From a virus (lineage: Duplodnaviria > Caudoviricetes), in IMG/VR virus record IMGVR_UViG_3300037424_000485, positions 32,001 through 96,000 of that record: 64,000 nucleotides of DNA; one strand, 5' to 3'. The translations under genes were made by a program, and so were the position numbers. This document shows, piece after piece, positions 4,811 through 17,251 of this stretch (position 1 is the stretch's first letter; each line of letters begins with the position of its first letter). The notes below the pieces were generated by a model. The model was given only the letters and a program-made list of their open reading frames with translations, did no database searches and was not told the DNA's origin.

Positions 4811-5590
4811 ATGATTCCAAAAAGTAGATTAACTATACGAAAGATTATGCCAGAATTGGTTAAGATCCTAGACCAATATAATTGGGATGTGGATGATGCT
4901 AAATTTGCTATGATTCTGTCAATGGTTTTATATCCTGCGGATAATGTAAGATTTACACCAAAAGAAAGCGAACACTCTATTGAAATATATGTCAGTGGTA
5001 TTGTACAAACCTTCTTGAATAACTCCATAAGCCAGCAAAAAGATCAAATAATAAATAATCTCTTGGATGAGAAAAAGAACCCATTATATGTTGCTCTTGG
5101 AGTAATCCTTGACAAAGCATTTGAATGGCGTAAATATCTAGAGAAACTTAACATTCAAAGACCTATGCTTTTTGATACTGATCATACAATTCAATTTCAA
5201 TTAGATATGAATATTGATGATTATATCGAAATGGCTGTAAATGAGACACTAGAATACGATTACACGGACATTTACGATATATATGGTGTCTTCCTACCTA
5301 AAATGGAAAAAACCGTTAGAAGTGAAGTAGGTGACGTTATTGAGGGCAGTGATTTTGATCAAGCACCAGAGCCTGAAAAAAAGAATAATGAGAAGCCAGA
5401 GTCAGAGAATTTTGATTATATCCAATGGAAGACAGATCGTAAGAAATCAAGAGAGCAGGAAGACAAGTTAAAAGTACATGATGACTTAAATCCTGGTGAG
5501 GATATAGTACCTGAAAATCCAGACCAGGAATCTAAAGTAGAAACCCCACCAAATAAAGCTAAGAAAAGAAAACTAAAAAAGAAGAAATAA
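4811..5590 (+). CDS. Hypothetical protein with acidic/Pro-rich region and basic C-terminal tail
   Basis: 259-aa ORF. TAATG stop/start coupling to the next gene. Confidence 0.75.
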   Translation: MIPKSRLTIRKIMPELVKILDQYNWDVDDAKFAMILSMVLYPADNVRFTPKESEHSIEIYVSGIVQTFLNNSISQQKDQIINNLLDEKKNPLYVALGVILDKAFEWRKYLEKLNIQRPMLFDTDHTIQFQLDMNIDDYIEMAVNETLEYDYTDIYDIYGVFLPKMEKTVRSEVGDVIEGSDFDQAPEPEKKNNEKPESENFDYIQWKTDRKKSREQEDKLKVHDDLNPGEDIVPENPDQESKVETPPNKAKKRKLKKKK

Positions 5591-5901
5591 TGAAAGATTT
5601 AGTAGAAAAATATTTAAATAGTGTAGATATAAATGAAGCAAGGACAAATCCAGATGACTATCTTAAAAACTTTATAGTTATTGGAAAGCAAGTTTTTCTA
5701 GCTATAGATGTTATTACAGCTGAAAATAATGGATGGAGAGCAGAAGTTGGTATATCACAGAGTGGTATGGTTATTGAAGATCCAAAATATACTTTTAAAT
5801 CTAGTTGGTTTAGCACTTTTGAACAAGCAGAGAAGGCGGCCTTGGGAATGGCAAAAGATATGAAAGTAAATTGGAATCCAAAACCATATGGTAGACGGTA
5901 A
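5590..5901 (+). CDS. Hypothetical protein; N-terminus paralogous to 3718 ORF
   Basis: MKDLVEKYLNSVDINEA versus MKDLVDKYLVSEA. Confidence 0.7.
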   Translation: MKDLVEKYLNSVDINEARTNPDDYLKNFIVIGKQVFLAIDVITAENNGWRAEVGISQSGMVIEDPKYTFKSSWFSTFEQAEKAALGMAKDMKVNWNPKPYGRR

Positions 5902-5911
5902 GTAAAAAATA

Positions 5912-6340
5912 ATGACTAAACCAGCATTTATCAACACAATTAAAGTAGAGTGGGATGCAAAAGATCCACGTGCTATGATTCTTCTTGAAGATGTGAGATT
6001 TATAGATGGACATGGTAAAACATGGATTGCTACGAAAGACTCTAGAATAGATGGTGCTAGTATACCTAAACTTTTATGGAGTTTAGTTGGATCTCCATTT
6101 ATTGGTATGTACAGACGTGCAAGTGTTATCCATGATGTATATTGTGTGAGTAGAACAGAGCCATGGGAAAAGGTACATAAGATGTTTTATGATGCTATGA
6201 TTACCGATGGGGTTTTAGAGAGTAAGGCAAAGATTATATACAAATCTATAATGGAACATGGGCCTAAATGGGATAAGAATGGTAAGACCATCACAGCCTT
6301 GGATATTGGAAATATAGATAAAAATTATGATTTGTTATAG
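5912..6340 (+). CDS. DUF1353-like protein
   Basis: DGASIPKLLWSLVGSPF.G.YRRASVIHDVYC motif. Confidence 0.8.
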   Translation: MTKPAFINTIKVEWDAKDPRAMILLEDVRFIDGHGKTWIATKDSRIDGASIPKLLWSLVGSPFIGMYRRASVIHDVYCVSRTEPWEKVHKMFYDAMITDGVLESKAKIIYKSIMEHGPKWDKNGKTITALDIGNIDKNYDLL

Positions 6341-6341
6341 G

Positions 6342-6623
6342 TTAAGAGAAATCAAAAAAAGGATTTGATTTTTGTTCTTTTAATATCTGTACCAATACAT
6401 CACCATGACATGCTTTAGGAGAACAATAGCATCCAAGTCTCTTTCCCTCTAGCTCATGGATTTGAGACATCAGCTCTTTGTTATTACGTATATATTCGTT
6501 ATACTTCTTAATAACCTCCGCTCTTGTACCATCAGGGCCTATATGAAATGGATTACCCCAAATTGATCCCCTTCCAATATAGATATCATAAGGCTCTTTG
6601 TTTAAGTTAACTACTTTTGACAT
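6342..6623 (-). CDS. DUF4326 family protein
   Basis: YDIYIGRGSIWGNPF...LEGKRLGCYCSPKACHGDVL motif. Confidence 0.85.
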   Translation of the reverse strand: MSKVVNLNKEPYDIYIGRGSIWGNPFHIGPDGTRAEVIKKYNEYIRNNKELMSQIHELEGKRLGCYCSPKACHGDVLVQILKEQKSNPFFDFS

Positions 6624-6684
6624 TCTGTTCTCTCGTTTGAAATTAATTGCAATACTACAGTTGATCTATTTAGAAAAAGTCAAC

Positions 6685-6737
6685 AAAAAAGGTGATTTAG
6701 GTACAGTCGATAATTAGACTGTCTAAATCACCTTTTT
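6685..6737. terminator. Long hairpin with A/T tails (probable intrinsic terminator)
   Basis: aaaaaaggtgatttag..acagtc pairs with gactgt-ctaaatcaccttttt. Confidence 0.7.
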
Positions 6738-6901
6738 AGGGAAGCATTAATACCTCTTGGTGTGAAGAAACCATACAATAAAACAAAAAACATATGGATG
6801 GTTATCAAACCTTCAGGGTCTTATGTCCTTTGTGTAGGTATTGCCCTTACTGTTCATCCATTTTAGGGTACTTGACTTAGAAGCCGTTCTCCCGTTTTGA
6901 T
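6685..6901 (-). ncRNA. Candidate ~200-nt structured non-coding RNA
   Basis: Lies between a sigma70 promoter (6908-6936) and a terminator hairpin. No credible ORF. Nested long-range complementarity. Confidence 0.45.
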
Positions 6902-6907
6902 ATTAAT

Positions 6908-6936
6908 AATATAAACCATTTTGAATATAATGTCAA
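6908..6936 (-). promoter_or_regulatory. sigma70-type promoter
   Basis: Reverse strand TTGACA-17 nt-TATATT. Confidence 0.65.
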
Positions 6937-6943
6937 TGTTTTT

Positions 6944-7318
6944 TTATAATCTAAATAATTCATCTGGTAAGACATATCTACTCTCATGAGTTTTTATATA
7001 ATATCTACGTAGGCCATTCGTTTCATAATACATCGATCTGTTAGCATCTATATGAATAGACAATACATCTATTACATTATTATCATATCTGGTATATTGT
7101 GCTATTCCAAGCCCTATTGCCTTTATAACTATAACTATATCTTTAACAGTCTTATCTACAAATACTGGAATATAGTAAGCACCATCTATTTGGCCTTCCT
7201 GTATAAGTCTGGTCGATTCAGTTTCAAACCCCTCTGAATCATATACAGAGTAATACGCATCTGGATCTCCTCTAAGAACCTCGCAAAAAGTAAGTGTAAA
7301 TGAATTGGTATCTGACAT
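6944..7318 (-). CDS. Hypothetical protein with C-terminal LPDELFRL tag
   Basis: 124-aa ORF ending YVLPDELFRL. Confidence 0.75.
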   Translation of the reverse strand: MSDTNSFTLTFCEVLRGDPDAYYSVYDSEGFETESTRLIQEGQIDGAYYIPVFVDKTVKDIVIVIKAIGLGIAQYTRYDNNVIDVLSIHIDANRSMYYETNGLRRYYIKTHESRYVLPDELFRL

Positions 7319-7321
7319 ATT

Positions 7322-7732
7322 TTATTTCTCCATATCAAATAGATGGTCAGGTAAGATGTCAATGTTTTTCTTATACATTGTCTTTGAAAGAATCATTTCT
7401 TCACCATCAAAATATGTAAGAGATGACCTTTGAGGATCTTCTGACCAACCACCATCTCTTATTACTTGTCTAAAATCACAATATGTTATTGATCCTTGTA
7501 TATGAGTATATCGATGGTCTGGATTAGCATGAAACCCTCTTGTATCTATAATAGGTAATCCATCTATATCATAATAGGCAGGAATTTCTAATCTACTATA
7601 TCTTGGGTCTGGATTAGCATGAAACCCTCTTGTATCTATAATAGGTAATCCATCTATATCATAATAGGCAGGAATTTCTAATCTACTCAATTCGCTCACA
7701 TCCCATATATATTCTTCATTTGTCCAGGCCAT
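7322..7732 (-). CDS. Hypothetical protein with 30-aa internal duplication and C-terminal LPDHLFDM tag
   Basis: SRLEIPAYYDIDGLPIIDTRGFHANPD occurs twice. Ends ILPDHLFDMEK. Confidence 0.75.
   Translation of the reverse strand: MAWTNEEYIWDVSELSRLEIPAYYDIDGLPIIDTRGFHANPDPRYSRLEIPAYYDIDGLPIIDTRGFHANPDHRYTHIQGSITYCDFRQVIRDGGWSEDPQRSSLTYFDGEEMILSKTMYKKNIDILPDHLFDMEK
7516..7687. repeat. 90-nt-period tandem duplication
   Basis: 7516-7597 is identical to 7606-7687. Confidence 0.95.
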
Positions 7733-7793
7733 TAATCCATCCTAAATAGTTCTTCTTGTATTGTATATTCATCATCTACATTTGTTTCTACAT

Positions 7794-8705
7794 TTAACAT
7801 CTTTCCCTTTTCATATTACAGCCATCTTGTTTATGTACTGCTTTATGGCATTTTTTGCATAGTGTAACACAATTATCAACATCAGCACTCTCAACAGGAT
7901 TGATCTCAATACCTTCAAAGTGATGACAGTGTAATTCTTTTGATGAATCACATTTTTGACATACCCAATTGTCTCTTTCTAATACAAGCTTTCTAAGTTG
8001 TGGTTGTACTTCTCTTGATGTTGATTTTTTATCATATCTATTATCATCTTTTGAATATACTTTTTGATAATATGTTCCACATGCGTTCTTACATCCATAA
8101 GAACAATAAAGGTTGCTCTCTCCATTAAGGTTCCCTTTTATTGATTGTATCTTTGATTGTACTGTAGATCTCGATGGGATAAACCATTTATTACAATACC
8201 AGCATCTAACCTCAAGAATATTTTCATCTATAACTGACCGTCTGCATTGAATACCGTATGGTTGAAGTGAGTAATATTGAGAGTTATATAATGGTATATT
8301 ATTCTTTTTATAACATTTACCATCACCAACACCACATTTATAACAACCCATCCCTCTTAGATGACTTATAGCTTTTTGTTCAAAAACTCCATGTATAGGA
8401 CATATAATTTTAACTTTGGTAAGACAGTCTGTATATTCAACTAATGAGTAATCATATCTATCACCATGTACATCTACACTACTATCTATAAAATCTTTTG
8501 TTGTTCTATATTTTCCAGAACATTTAGGACAATTTATTCCTCTTTTATGATGATATGGAGATTGTTCAAATACACCATGTATTAAACATATAATTTTAAC
8601 TTTAATATGAGATGTTATATATTCAACTAATGAGTAATCATACCTATCACCATGTATTAATCTACAATCAGCGATAAATCTATATGTTGTTAGTTTTCTT
8701 GACAT
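7794..8705 (-). CDS. HNH homing endonuclease, family copy 2 (DUF723-like HGDRYDYS repeats)
   Basis: Two HGDRYDYSLVEY...CPIHGVFEQ repeats plus the shared C-terminal HNH module. Confidence 0.85.
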   Translation of the reverse strand: MSRKLTTYRFIADCRLIHGDRYDYSLVEYITSHIKVKIICLIHGVFEQSPYHHKRGINCPKCSGKYRTTKDFIDSSVDVHGDRYDYSLVEYTDCLTKVKIICPIHGVFEQKAISHLRGMGCYKCGVGDGKCYKKNNIPLYNSQYYSLQPYGIQCRRSVIDENILEVRCWYCNKWFIPSRSTVQSKIQSIKGNLNGESNLYCSYGCKNACGTYYQKVYSKDDNRYDKKSTSREVQPQLRKLVLERDNWVCQKCDSSKELHCHHFEGIEINPVESADVDNCVTLCKKCHKAVHKQDGCNMKRERC

Positions 8706-10150
8706 AACTCCATTTCAAAATTTGCATTTGATTCTAACAGCTTATATTCATTTATAGTATGTTTCTCAAATGTATAATGTCTATGCCTGATCTCACCGTG
8801 CTTCTTTAAAAATTTGGTGTTATCAACAATATCCCATATAATAGCCCCAACACCTTCTTTATCCTCATGAAGTCTAAGTGTTCTGCCGATTGATTGAATT
8901 ACACGTATATAGCTTTTGCTTGGACTAGCAAAGACTAGAGATCTAAGAGAAGGCATGTTGATGCCAACACTAAAGACTTGGTAAGTAGCTATAATTATTA
9001 CATCATCCCTTAAATCACCCAACAATCTCCATTTTTCTCTAAGCTCTGCTTTATCTCTTCCCGATATAAAAACAACTTGACGGTTTGGAAATTTATCTCT
9101 GAGGGCTTCCTCCAAATCCTCACCCTCTTTTATTTTATCAACAAGAAGAAGGATTGTATGATCTGTTATACCACATAGATGTTTTATAAGTCCAAGCCTG
9201 TATTTACTTTCCCCTATCTTCTCTCTTACTTGATTATAATCACCCTTTATCTTGTCAAGATAGTTTACATGCAACATATTTATATTACAGTGCGATATAA
9301 AACCATCATCAGCAAGATCTTTCGATGTTACATTTTTAAGAACAGGCCCTATATATGACTTGACCATTAATTCATCAAGTCTACATTTTGGCATAGTACC
9401 AGTAAATCCTAATCTCCATCTAGCTTTAGTTGCATGTTGTAATACTTCATGTAATATCTTTGCGGCACAACTATGAACCTCATCGACAATGACACAATCG
9501 AATGTACCTACCATCTCTTTTTTATTCTTTAAGGATTGCCATGTTGATATAACAATCCTCTTATCAAATTCTTTTAATTTACTATTAACACATCCCAATA
9601 ATTCTGGGTATATACCATAGTCTAATAGATCATTATAAAATTGGGTAGTTAATCCTATCGTAGGTACAATTATAATAGCATTATTAATCTCTTCCTTTAG
9701 TAGTTCTTTAATGATATATGCTATAATAAGACTCTTTCCAGATGCAGTACATGATACTATACATCCTTTAGAATAGGATAGTGCTGCTAATATACAATCT
9801 TCTTGATATGCCCTTGGATAGTGTTTAAGATTCCATGTTGGGTCTGGTTTAATACCCTCAAACATCTTCTTAACATCATTTTCAATGTTGATTTCTAAAT
9901 GAGGAAATTCCTTTTTAGTAAACTTAACAAGATCTAGTAAAAGTCCATAAGATAATCTACGAACGTTAGGATTAAAAAGAGATTTTTTCCCATTCCACTG
10001 ACCAGATTTATATTTTGATGTGAACATATAACCGTCCACATATTCTGTATAATGTTCTTTAACTTTATTTAAATATTCATAATCAGTAGTATCTATACGT
10101 ATGTTTAAATTATCATGTAGAACTATATTTACATTTTCTTTATTACTCAT
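8690..10150 (-). CDS. uvsW: UvsW-like superfamily 2 DNA helicase
   Basis: PRAYQ, CTASGKS (Walker A), DEVH, GFTGT, VGINMPSL, QSIGRTLR motifs. Confidence 0.9.
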   Translation of the reverse strand: MSNKENVNIVLHDNLNIRIDTTDYEYLNKVKEHYTEYVDGYMFTSKYKSGQWNGKKSLFNPNVRRLSYGLLLDLVKFTKKEFPHLEINIENDVKKMFEGIKPDPTWNLKHYPRAYQEDCILAALSYSKGCIVSCTASGKSLIIAYIIKELLKEEINNAIIIVPTIGLTTQFYNDLLDYGIYPELLGCVNSKLKEFDKRIVISTWQSLKNKKEMVGTFDCVIVDEVHSCAAKILHEVLQHATKARWRLGFTGTMPKCRLDELMVKSYIGPVLKNVTSKDLADDGFISHCNINMLHVNYLDKIKGDYNQVREKIGESKYRLGLIKHLCGITDHTILLLVDKIKEGEDLEEALRDKFPNRQVVFISGRDKAELREKWRLLGDLRDDVIIIATYQVFSVGINMPSLRSLVFASPSKSYIRVIQSIGRTLRLHEDKEGVGAIIWDIVDNTKFLKKHGEIRHRHYTFEKHTINEYKLLESNANFEMELCQEN

Positions 10151-10742
10151 TTATATATTCACATTTATATCCTTTGTGGTGTGTTTGTATATTTTTTGCC
10201 ACCTTTATCATCAGTTGATGTAAAAGTTTGGATTTATGTTCTCTACACCATTTCCTAATACCACTAACTATAATGACCTCACCTGTTGGTGTAATGACTT
10301 TATAAGTTCTTGATTTTATATGATTACTACCTGACATCTTCTCACTTAATATTTTTTTAATTTCATCACTATGTGTTTTACCATAGAAAGGATTACTATC
10401 ACCTTTGGTTGCATCACTTATCTTTTGTTTTGTCTCTTTGGTATGATGGTGTCCTGTCATTCCCCCACCAGAGCCACCCCATGCTAGATTATATCCACAA
10501 ACGCCGAATGAATTATACTGTTTAATATAGTGAAATTCCATTTCATCAAGCTCTTCTTTGGATTTACATTCACATAACACTTCCCATATGAAATTTTCTT
10601 TACCATATTTGTTTATTGCCTTGGAAAAATAAGTGTTGATTTTAGATATGATATGTTGTCTCTTTCTAAATTTTAATGTATTTTTGGTTTGTCCTATATA
10701 ACACTTACCATCGACTGTATTTGTTGCTTTATAAATAATCAT
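10143..10742 (-). CDS. GIY-YIG homing endonuclease with NUMOD3 motifs (Seg-like)
   Basis: IIYKATN..DGKCYIGQT, GYNLAWGG, HHHTKETKQKIS and NPFYGKTHS motifs. Confidence 0.9.
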   Translation of the reverse strand: MIIYKATNTVDGKCYIGQTKNTLKFRKRQHIISKINTYFSKAINKYGKENFIWEVLCECKSKEELDEMEFHYIKQYNSFGVCGYNLAWGGSGGGMTGHHHTKETKQKISDATKGDSNPFYGKTHSDEIKKILSEKMSGSNHIKSRTYKVITPTGEVIIVSGIRKWCREHKSKLLHQLMIKVAKNIQTHHKGYKCEYINE

Positions 10743-17087: not shown

Positions 17088-17251
17088 TTCAAATTTGAAT
17101 CTGTTGCTTCTAAAATTCAAATATTATATTTCCCCCCTTAACAGGTTTTATTATACCTGTGAGAGTAAGGTTTGTAAACATAGAATATTAAAATAATTTA
17201 ATATATACAAATTATAATGTAAATACATAGAGATAAATTAACATAAAGAAT

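Follow-up and report, generated by a model that had tools for sequence, protein, structure and literature searches.

What does a phage gain from a stretch of DNA that opens with a promoter, closes with a terminator and has no open reading frame between them? This question is raised by a gap between two minus-strand genes in the window analyzed here, a 64,000-nt stretch corresponding to bases 32001-96000 of a 204,431-bp IMG/VR virus record. Positions refer to the window unless they are marked as genome positions or carry a contig name. The record represents an uncultured T4-like phage; among cultured phages, no UvsW matches its own at more than ~32% identity. An earlier note, made from the letters of the sequence, had described the gap as a stand-alone unit for a non-coding RNA of ~200 nt, with a 6S-like decoy of the host polymerase as one idea for its function. 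The first part of this description is supported by our analysis: a homologous unit in a related phage has its own promoter and terminator, and the indels that separate the two copies break the reading frames of the part they share. The decoy idea fared less well.

Transcription signals and genomic setting

The locus lies downstream of uvsW, in a variable region rich in orphan genes and homing endonucleases (Table 1). A plus-strand gene block that ends at 6340 converges on the minus-strand block containing the RNA unit, and the end of its last gene is 1 nt from the stop codon of the DUF4326 gene.

Table 1. Features of the RNA unit, its neighbourhood and related loci
Feature	Position	Strand	Remarks
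YAcAr-domain gene		minus	upstream of the RNA unit, same block as uvsW
GIY-YIG homing endonuclease gene	10143-10742	minus	other side of uvsW from the HNH gene
uvsW	10150-8690	minus	farther upstream of the RNA unit
HNH homing endonuclease gene	7794-8705	minus	one side of uvsW
136-aa ORF	7732-7322	minus	farther upstream of the RNA unit
Orphan 124-aa ORF	7318-6944	minus	upstream neighbour of the RNA unit
ORF-less gap with the RNA unit	320 nt		between two minus-strand genes
Early (host sigma-70 type) promoter, TTGACA-17-TATATT	6908..6936	minus	11/12, best match in 5500-8500
Conserved RNA core (~103 nt), ACGGGAGAACGG to CCAUCCAUA	6793..6895	minus	shared with L019:3503-3605
Invariant 5' block ACGGGAGAACGG	6884..6895	minus	like an mRNA leader with Shine-Dalgarno sequence; no start codon after it
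5' hairpin GGCU-UCUA-AGUC (predicted)	6874..6885	minus	L019: GGUU-CUUUG-AAUC
5' strand AUGGAUG of 7-bp helix (predicted)	6855..6861	minus	invariant in both phages
3' strand CAUCCAU of 7-bp helix (predicted)	6794..6800	minus	closes internal domain
Window-specific 3' segment	6738..6792	minus	no counterpart in L019
Bidirectional intrinsic terminator	6685..6737	both	~21-bp stem, 2-nt bulge; U6 on minus, U5 on plus
PeSL-type junction	6652..6683	minus	TTGACT, 20-nt spacer, TAGTAT; upstream of the DUF4326 gene
DUF4326 gene	6623-6342	minus	downstream neighbour of the RNA unit
Five-hairpin ORF-less RNA (putative)	L014:3418-3790, L013:4668-5040, also L015		after uvsW

The promoter that had been proposed for the unit was borne out as the best match in its surroundings, with a predicted transcription start near 6901 on the minus strand. 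The A/T-rich sequence AAAAAAACA lies directly upstream of it, and its spacer, which has AAAATGGT before the -10 element, fits the pattern of the other gene-proximal early promoters of this phage; many similar promoter/leader motifs occur across the genome. The 5' end of the predicted transcript contains GGGAGA, and no ATG, GTG or TTG is found 4-12 nt downstream of this sequence. Such a Shine-Dalgarno-like 5' end, resembling the leader of an mRNA, is unusual for an sRNA. Local similarity also links the leader of the unit to that of the DUF4326 gene downstream (a score reached by 5 of 1000 shuffles).

At the other end of the unit, the long terminator hairpin described earlier proved to be among the four strongest of the 204-kb genome. 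It ranks second on the plus strand and fourth on the minus strand among 417 sites at which a hairpin is followed by a T-run, and is thus a very strong bidirectional terminator. This hairpin runs straight into the TTGACT of a junction of the kind associated with promoter-early stem-loops (PeSLs) of T4-type phages (Arbiol et al. 2010, PMC2839356; Comeau et al. 2014, PMC4122927). Because as many as 20 nt separate the TTGACT and TAGTAT of this junction, the DUF4326 gene probably has no working sigma-70 promoter of its own; a promoter search reported no canonical promoter between the terminator and the DUF4326 start. The 20-nt spacer includes TCTAAATA, which corresponds to 7/8 of the T4 late-promoter box. 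Another long terminator, TAAAAGGTGAAAGA...TTTTTCACCTTTTG, is located at genome position 124649 on the minus strand (window 92649). It has the ends AAAAGGTGA...TCACCTTTT in common with the hairpin of the RNA unit, which suggests that the phage may possess a family of terminator stem-loops.

Several features of the neighbouring genes were also observed. The genome contains ~18 HNH paralogues, and both the HNH and the GIY-YIG genes that flank uvsW look like recent insertions, since both are absent from the related contig L019, in which the YAcAr-domain gene, uvsW and the small ORFs after it lie directly against one another. The 136-aa ORF contains a perfect 90-bp tandem duplication (7516-7687; 1.9 copies, 100% match). 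This is lacking in JGI contig L009, which is identical in other respects and in which the gene encodes 106 aa; the difference may be either a population polymorphism or an assembly artefact. This ORF, the 124-aa ORF and an ORF at L019:3194-3451 have a common C-terminal motif, (I/L)PD(D/H/E)LF.... These small ORFs upstream of the RNA unit appear to form a lineage-specific family of small proteins, given that no relatives of the 124-aa ORF or of the 85-aa ORF upstream of the L019 unit were detected in a large protein database.

A homologous unit and its lack of coding capacity

A search with UvsW yielded eight clusters with 58-72% identity, and the contigs of these clusters were compared with the window unit. 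A homologous unit was found ~600 nt downstream of uvsW in L019 (Logan SRR12601634), whose UvsW is 70% identical to that of the window. Its promoter, TTGACG-17-TATAGT, is in the same place as that of the window, and its terminator, a 16-bp stem with U6, is different. The terminator and the -35 element that follows are joined in both phages by the common sequence CCTTTTTTRTTGACTTT. The transcription signals of the unit are real, and the second copy has signals that are conserved in function. From the two sequences we infer a discrete early RNA of ~215 nt in the window phage and ~170 nt in L019.

The two copies share a core in which 84 of 100 aligned nucleotides are identical and which contains three indels, of 1, 2 and 1 nt. 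This 84% identity may be compared with 71% for uvsW overall (74%, 86% and 47% at codon positions 1, 2 and 3, respectively) and 70% for the promoter of the unit; the terminators are unrelated. Conservation of the core far exceeds that of neutral sites, the chance of obtaining 84 identities in 100 at the uvsW third-position rate being about 3e-14. It should be noted that the high identity could derive in part from a recent exchange of the cassette between the two phage lineages, and not from purifying selection.

The genes around the unit differ between the two phages. Upstream, the orphan 124-aa ORF of the window is replaced by the 85-aa ORF in L019; downstream, in place of the DUF4326 gene, the L019 terminator leads directly into a TTGACT-16-TATACT promoter, and a small unrelated gene with its Shine-Dalgarno sequence and ATG comes next. 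Since the neighbours differ and the next gene in L019 has its own promoter, the unit is kept for itself and does not serve as a leader of DUF4326; it is independent of the neighbouring genes.

Beyond this pair the unit appears to be rare. A covariance model of the core detected a single copy in the phage genome and, among the loci of the relatives, only that of L019; blastn and tblastx likewise found no paralogue in the phage's own genome. No homologue of the window unit, the L019 unit or the L014 unit described below was present in the GenBank phage collection, and none of the RNA unit was found at the loci of DUF4326 relatives or by scans based on neighbouring proteins. Scans of IMG/VR with exact patterns gave no homologue and those with gapped patterns only chance matches; scans of metagenomes and of species genomes gave one chance 19-mer each, in unrelated DNA. 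Two JGI contigs from the same phage population are identical to the window over the unit and are therefore uninformative. The T-rich tract of the unit was also compared with the 5' ends of HNH genes, giving weak low-complexity matches; no resemblance to the leader or coding sequence of the 18 HNH copies was seen, and this candidate was rejected.

Neither strand of the unit is able to encode a conserved peptide. As the earlier note had it, the ~165 nt that follow the promoter contain no usable ORF: no frame is conserved with L019, and the indels within the core break every reading frame on both strands. The count of ATG-started frames given there, with lengths of 4 and 18 codons, had to be corrected; the minus strand has frames of 4, 14 and 21 codons. 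The longest starts at 6793-6791, has its TGA stop within the 5' arm of the terminator and would specify a Phe-rich, hydrophobic peptide, MFFVLLYGFFTPRGINASLKR. This frame has no Shine-Dalgarno sequence at a usable distance, and its AUG is buried in a 12-bp helix of the best predicted fold. In L019 the ATG is replaced (CCATCCATAGTATTTTG) and the coding segment is missing. The 14-codon ORF (MNSKGNTYTKDIRP) resembles a 26-codon ORF of L019 only before the 2-nt indel, and the eight differences within the 14 shared codons are distributed 2, 3 and 3 over codon positions 1, 2 and 3, so that there is no excess at third positions. Antisense ORFs switch frames between the two phages. Every frame of the unit contains 3-5 stops, which argues that it is not a recently decayed ORF. 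Taken together, the frame-breaking indels, the missing ATG and the differing neighbours point to an independent non-coding RNA gene and not to a gene for a peptide or a leader.

Predicted fold and comparison with known RNAs

The body of the RNA (6738-6902, 165 nt) had been described as more GC-rich than its flanks. This is indeed the case, with a GC content of 0.38 for the body and 0.19-0.31 for the flanks; the genome mean is 0.32. The 5' 96 nt of the body reach 0.44, which places them in the top 4% of genome windows. The 3' segment that is specific to the window holds a U-rich tract, a small hairpin (UUUCUU-CACACC-AAGAGG) and the sequence CUUCCC, whose pairing with GGGAG is possible only in the window copy.

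The fold of the core was predicted with RNAalifold from the window and L019 copies. In the consensus, a 5' hairpin contains one compensatory pair (C-G to U-A), the first indel of the core (1 nt) is accommodated in its loop, and a weak 3-bp helix is predicted around it. The AUGGAUG/CAUCCAU helix is paired in the consensus fold as well as in the best fold of L019, and three C-to-U changes between the two copies preserve G-U pairs. Since only two homologous sequences are available, the covariation counts are not distinguishable from those of shuffled sequences, 258 of 500 shuffles reaching the observed values. The body alone is predicted to be no better folded than shuffled sequence (z = -0.82); the value for the whole unit (z = -3.46) is owed to the terminator. 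A hand-drawn three-way junction that places all three indels in hairpin loops was also considered. Its energy was acceptable for the window (-19.3 versus -20.7 kcal/mol) and poor for L019 (-13.4 versus -20.2 kcal/mol), and because of the poor L019 value this structure is not claimed.

The earlier note had named three nested complementary pairs, all of which are present, and had drawn from them a closed rod reminiscent of 6S RNA. The rod is less favourable: with these helices the window RNA is predicted to have an energy of -28.0 kcal/mol, compared with -34.6 kcal/mol for the best fold, which is branched. For two of the three helices, the 3' strand falls within 6792-6738, the segment missing in L019; the one helix that is kept, AUGGAUG/CAUCCAU, closes an internal domain and not the whole molecule. 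A comparison with Rfam, which had been named as a check, returned no family at gathering score in the whole window. In a more sensitive scan (E up to 10) of 6500-7100 and of the L019 copy, no 6S RNA was detected, and 6500-7100 gave only chance hairpin hits; no tRNA or tmRNA was found. The 6S-like decoy is therefore not supported, there being no Rfam match, an unfavourable rod and no closing stem in L019.

Some likeness to 6S RNA (RF00013) nevertheless exists. The sizes are alike (~215 nt for the window unit, ~185 nt for 6S), and both RNAs are non-coding and made by the host polymerase, a property that is predicted for the window unit. The differences concern structure and biogenesis: the window RNA has no closed rod and no central bubble between long helices, its 5'/3' closing helix is not conserved, and its end would be set by a strong intrinsic terminator, whereas 6S RNAs are processed from longer transcripts. 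Among T4-type phages, the small stable RNAs of T4 (species 1, rnaC, and species 2, rnaD) are also non-coding. They are located in the tRNA cluster and are processed along with the tRNAs; the window unit, in contrast, is a separate promoter-to-terminator gene near uvsW and far from the tRNA island. Parallels also exist with bacterial and phage trans-acting sRNAs of the Hfq type: the unit has a promoter of its own, a predicted length of 170-220 nt, conservation towards the 5' end, no ORF and a U-rich linker followed by an intrinsic terminator with U6. The unit departs from these in that its conserved 5' block resembles a ribosome-binding site and in that it belongs to no Rfam family. No Hfq gene was found in the phage record. 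Models for RegB and RegA had no match in the record, and none in the control genomes either, so that this absence carries no information. The reverse complements of the conserved blocks showed no clustering at the translation starts of the phage's own genes.

A mosaic cassette and possible roles of its RNA

PeSLs combine a strong early promoter, a stem-loop terminator and a Shine-Dalgarno leader, and mediate modular shuffling in hyperplastic regions (PMC2839356, PMC4122927). The window unit resembles them in most respects. Its sigma-70 early promoter is near consensus and follows A/T-rich sequence, its terminator stem-loop runs into the -35 element of the next promoter, as in L019, it has a Shine-Dalgarno leader, and it is located in a hyperplastic region of orphan genes. 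Its modules also appear to be exchanged between related phages, being common to L014 and L019 around differing cargo and neighbours. It differs from a PeSL in that no start codon of a downstream protein gene follows the Shine-Dalgarno sequence. PeSLs have been described as regulatory linkers around protein-coding ORFs, whereas the cargo here is a conserved non-coding sequence of ~103 nt; since this cargo is unable to encode a protein, the PeSL-like cassette would in this case carry an RNA gene.

A further variant was found in the sister phage represented by L013, L014 and L015 (UvsW 67% identical), which has a 758-nt ORF-less gap after uvsW. The second promoter and leader of this gap match those of the window unit with a score of 44 (shuffles 16 +/- 2.8; 0 of 1000 reach it), and the terminators match with a score of 26 (shuffles 15.5 +/- 2.4; 1 of 1000 reaches it). 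The body between these shared modules is different. It comprises ~370 nt with five hairpins whose stems are unlike each other and whose loops all contain CACA(UC)AAAAAA(U) (loop motif CACAUCAAAAAA). This RNA is predicted to be strongly structured (z = -4.39) and has the appearance of a protein or RNA sponge. A second promoter, with a small hairpin, is present just upstream, at ~L014:3293-3370.

On balance, and with a little better than even confidence in the statement as a whole, we favour the view that the unit is a stand-alone early non-coding RNA gene whose product is a trans-acting, base-pairing sRNA. The host sigma-70 RNA polymerase would transcribe an RNA of ~215 nt early in infection, from ~6901 to 6686 on the minus strand, and the very strong intrinsic terminator would end the transcript. 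The functional part would be the ~103-nt core that the related phage has also kept. Two domains are predicted for this core, one formed by the small 5' hairpin and the other enclosed by the 7 bp of AUGGAUG/CAUCCAU, and it would be followed by a U-rich linker, the terminator hairpin and a U tail. Such an RNA presumably acts in trans during host take-over. Conserved stretches predicted to be unpaired, either the invariant 5' ACGGGAGAACGG or AGGACNUAAGACC, would most likely base-pair with host or phage mRNAs; this is taken as the likeliest mechanism because base-pairing sRNAs typically have this succession of conserved 5' part, U-rich linker and terminator with U tail. The gene itself would occupy a PeSL-like exchangeable slot consisting of promoter/leader, cargo and terminator.

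The main functional rival to a base-pairing sRNA is a decoy or sponge RNA that sequesters a host or phage protein, the 6S-like decoy of RNA polymerase included. The five-hairpin RNA in the corresponding slot of the sister phage, bounded by a promoter/leader and terminator in common with the window unit, lends it some credit, as do the two small hairpins with CACA-type loops in the window copy and, for the decoy, a size close to that of 6S. Yet the CACA loops are lost in L019, where a 2-nt deletion leaves a loop of AUAU, the core contains no repeated motif, and a 6S-like molecule is opposed by the absence of any Rfam match and by a rod that lacks its closing partners in L019 and falls 6.6 kcal/mol short of the best fold. 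We regard this role as unlikely. A slightly larger, though still small, chance is given to an explanation in which the RNA has no role: the cassette could be empty or vestigial, its promoter, leader and terminator remaining from around a former gene or having been introduced by recombination, with the transcript as a by-product and the useful part being the bidirectional terminator, which would insulate the converging gene blocks. In its favour, the unit has a canonical early-mRNA leader whose Shine-Dalgarno sequence precedes no start codon, and it is a mosaic with modules common to L014, amid the many orphan genes and homing endonucleases of a variable region; its terminator is predicted to work on both strands and is among the strongest of the genome, and shuffling of this kind is a known property of PeSLs (PMC2839356, PMC4122927). 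What speaks against a remnant is the distribution of conservation. An identity of 84% in the core, set against 47% at uvsW third positions, 70% in the promoter and unrelated terminators, points to constraint on the cargo itself; the 3-5 stops in all frames argue against a recently decayed ORF, and the GC content of 0.38-0.44 in the body is in excess of typical intergenic values.

The remaining explanations are considerably less probable. A cis-acting leader, in which a riboswitch or attenuator would govern how much transcription passes the terminator and reaches the DUF4326 gene, would suit a gene that may depend on read-through, having no canonical promoter before its start. We consider it very unlikely, as the homologous RNA of L019 is followed by a different gene with a good promoter of its own, no antiterminator pairing and no Rfam riboswitch match were found, and the terminator hairpin is very stable and self-contained. 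T4 offers a precedent for a role at the level of DNA: its oriF adjoins uvsW, and UvsW unwinds origin R-loops. The proximity of our unit to uvsW, together with a promoter followed by a non-coding stretch that is predicted to be transcribed, would fit an R-loop origin of this type, at which the promoter transcript primes replication. This is more improbable still, because the DNA downstream of the promoter is more GC-rich than average, unlike an AT-rich unwinding element, and the strong terminators are predicted to define a discrete RNA in both phages. The lowest probability is assigned to an mRNA for a small peptide, either a type I toxin-like product of 21 aa or a leader peptide that would open the terminator hairpin while being translated. 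The hydrophobic character of the predicted product and the location of its stop codon inside the terminator arm would suit these roles. The buried AUG and the lack of a Shine-Dalgarno sequence at a usable distance do not, and with the ATG and the whole segment missing in L019, and the other short ORFs not conserved in frame, this reading appears to be already largely refuted.

As a stand-alone RNA gene, the unit is cleanly bounded, with conserved transcription signals around a constrained core that cannot code. It would indicate that T4-type phages can use their exchangeable promoter-terminator cassettes for RNA genes in addition to genes for small proteins. Compared with temperate phages, virulent phages have to our knowledge yielded few regulatory RNAs, and T4-type phages almost none. 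The RNA gene is a candidate, of limited value in that the phage is uncultured and only two copies are known. More speculatively, the slot after uvsW might be a dedicated exchangeable RNA slot, in which a shared promoter/leader and terminator enclose differing non-coding cargos; the RNAs concerned would then make up a class not described so far, serving early host takeover as decoys or regulators and passing between phages in the manner of accessory genes. We put this forward as a doubtful but conceivable extension. At two sites elsewhere in the genome, window 17130-17190 (minus strand) and genome 151582-151660 (plus strand), a promoter precedes one and the same sequence, AAACCTGTTAAGGGGGGAAATATAATATTTGAATTTTAGAAGCA, and neither site has an ORF start close by.
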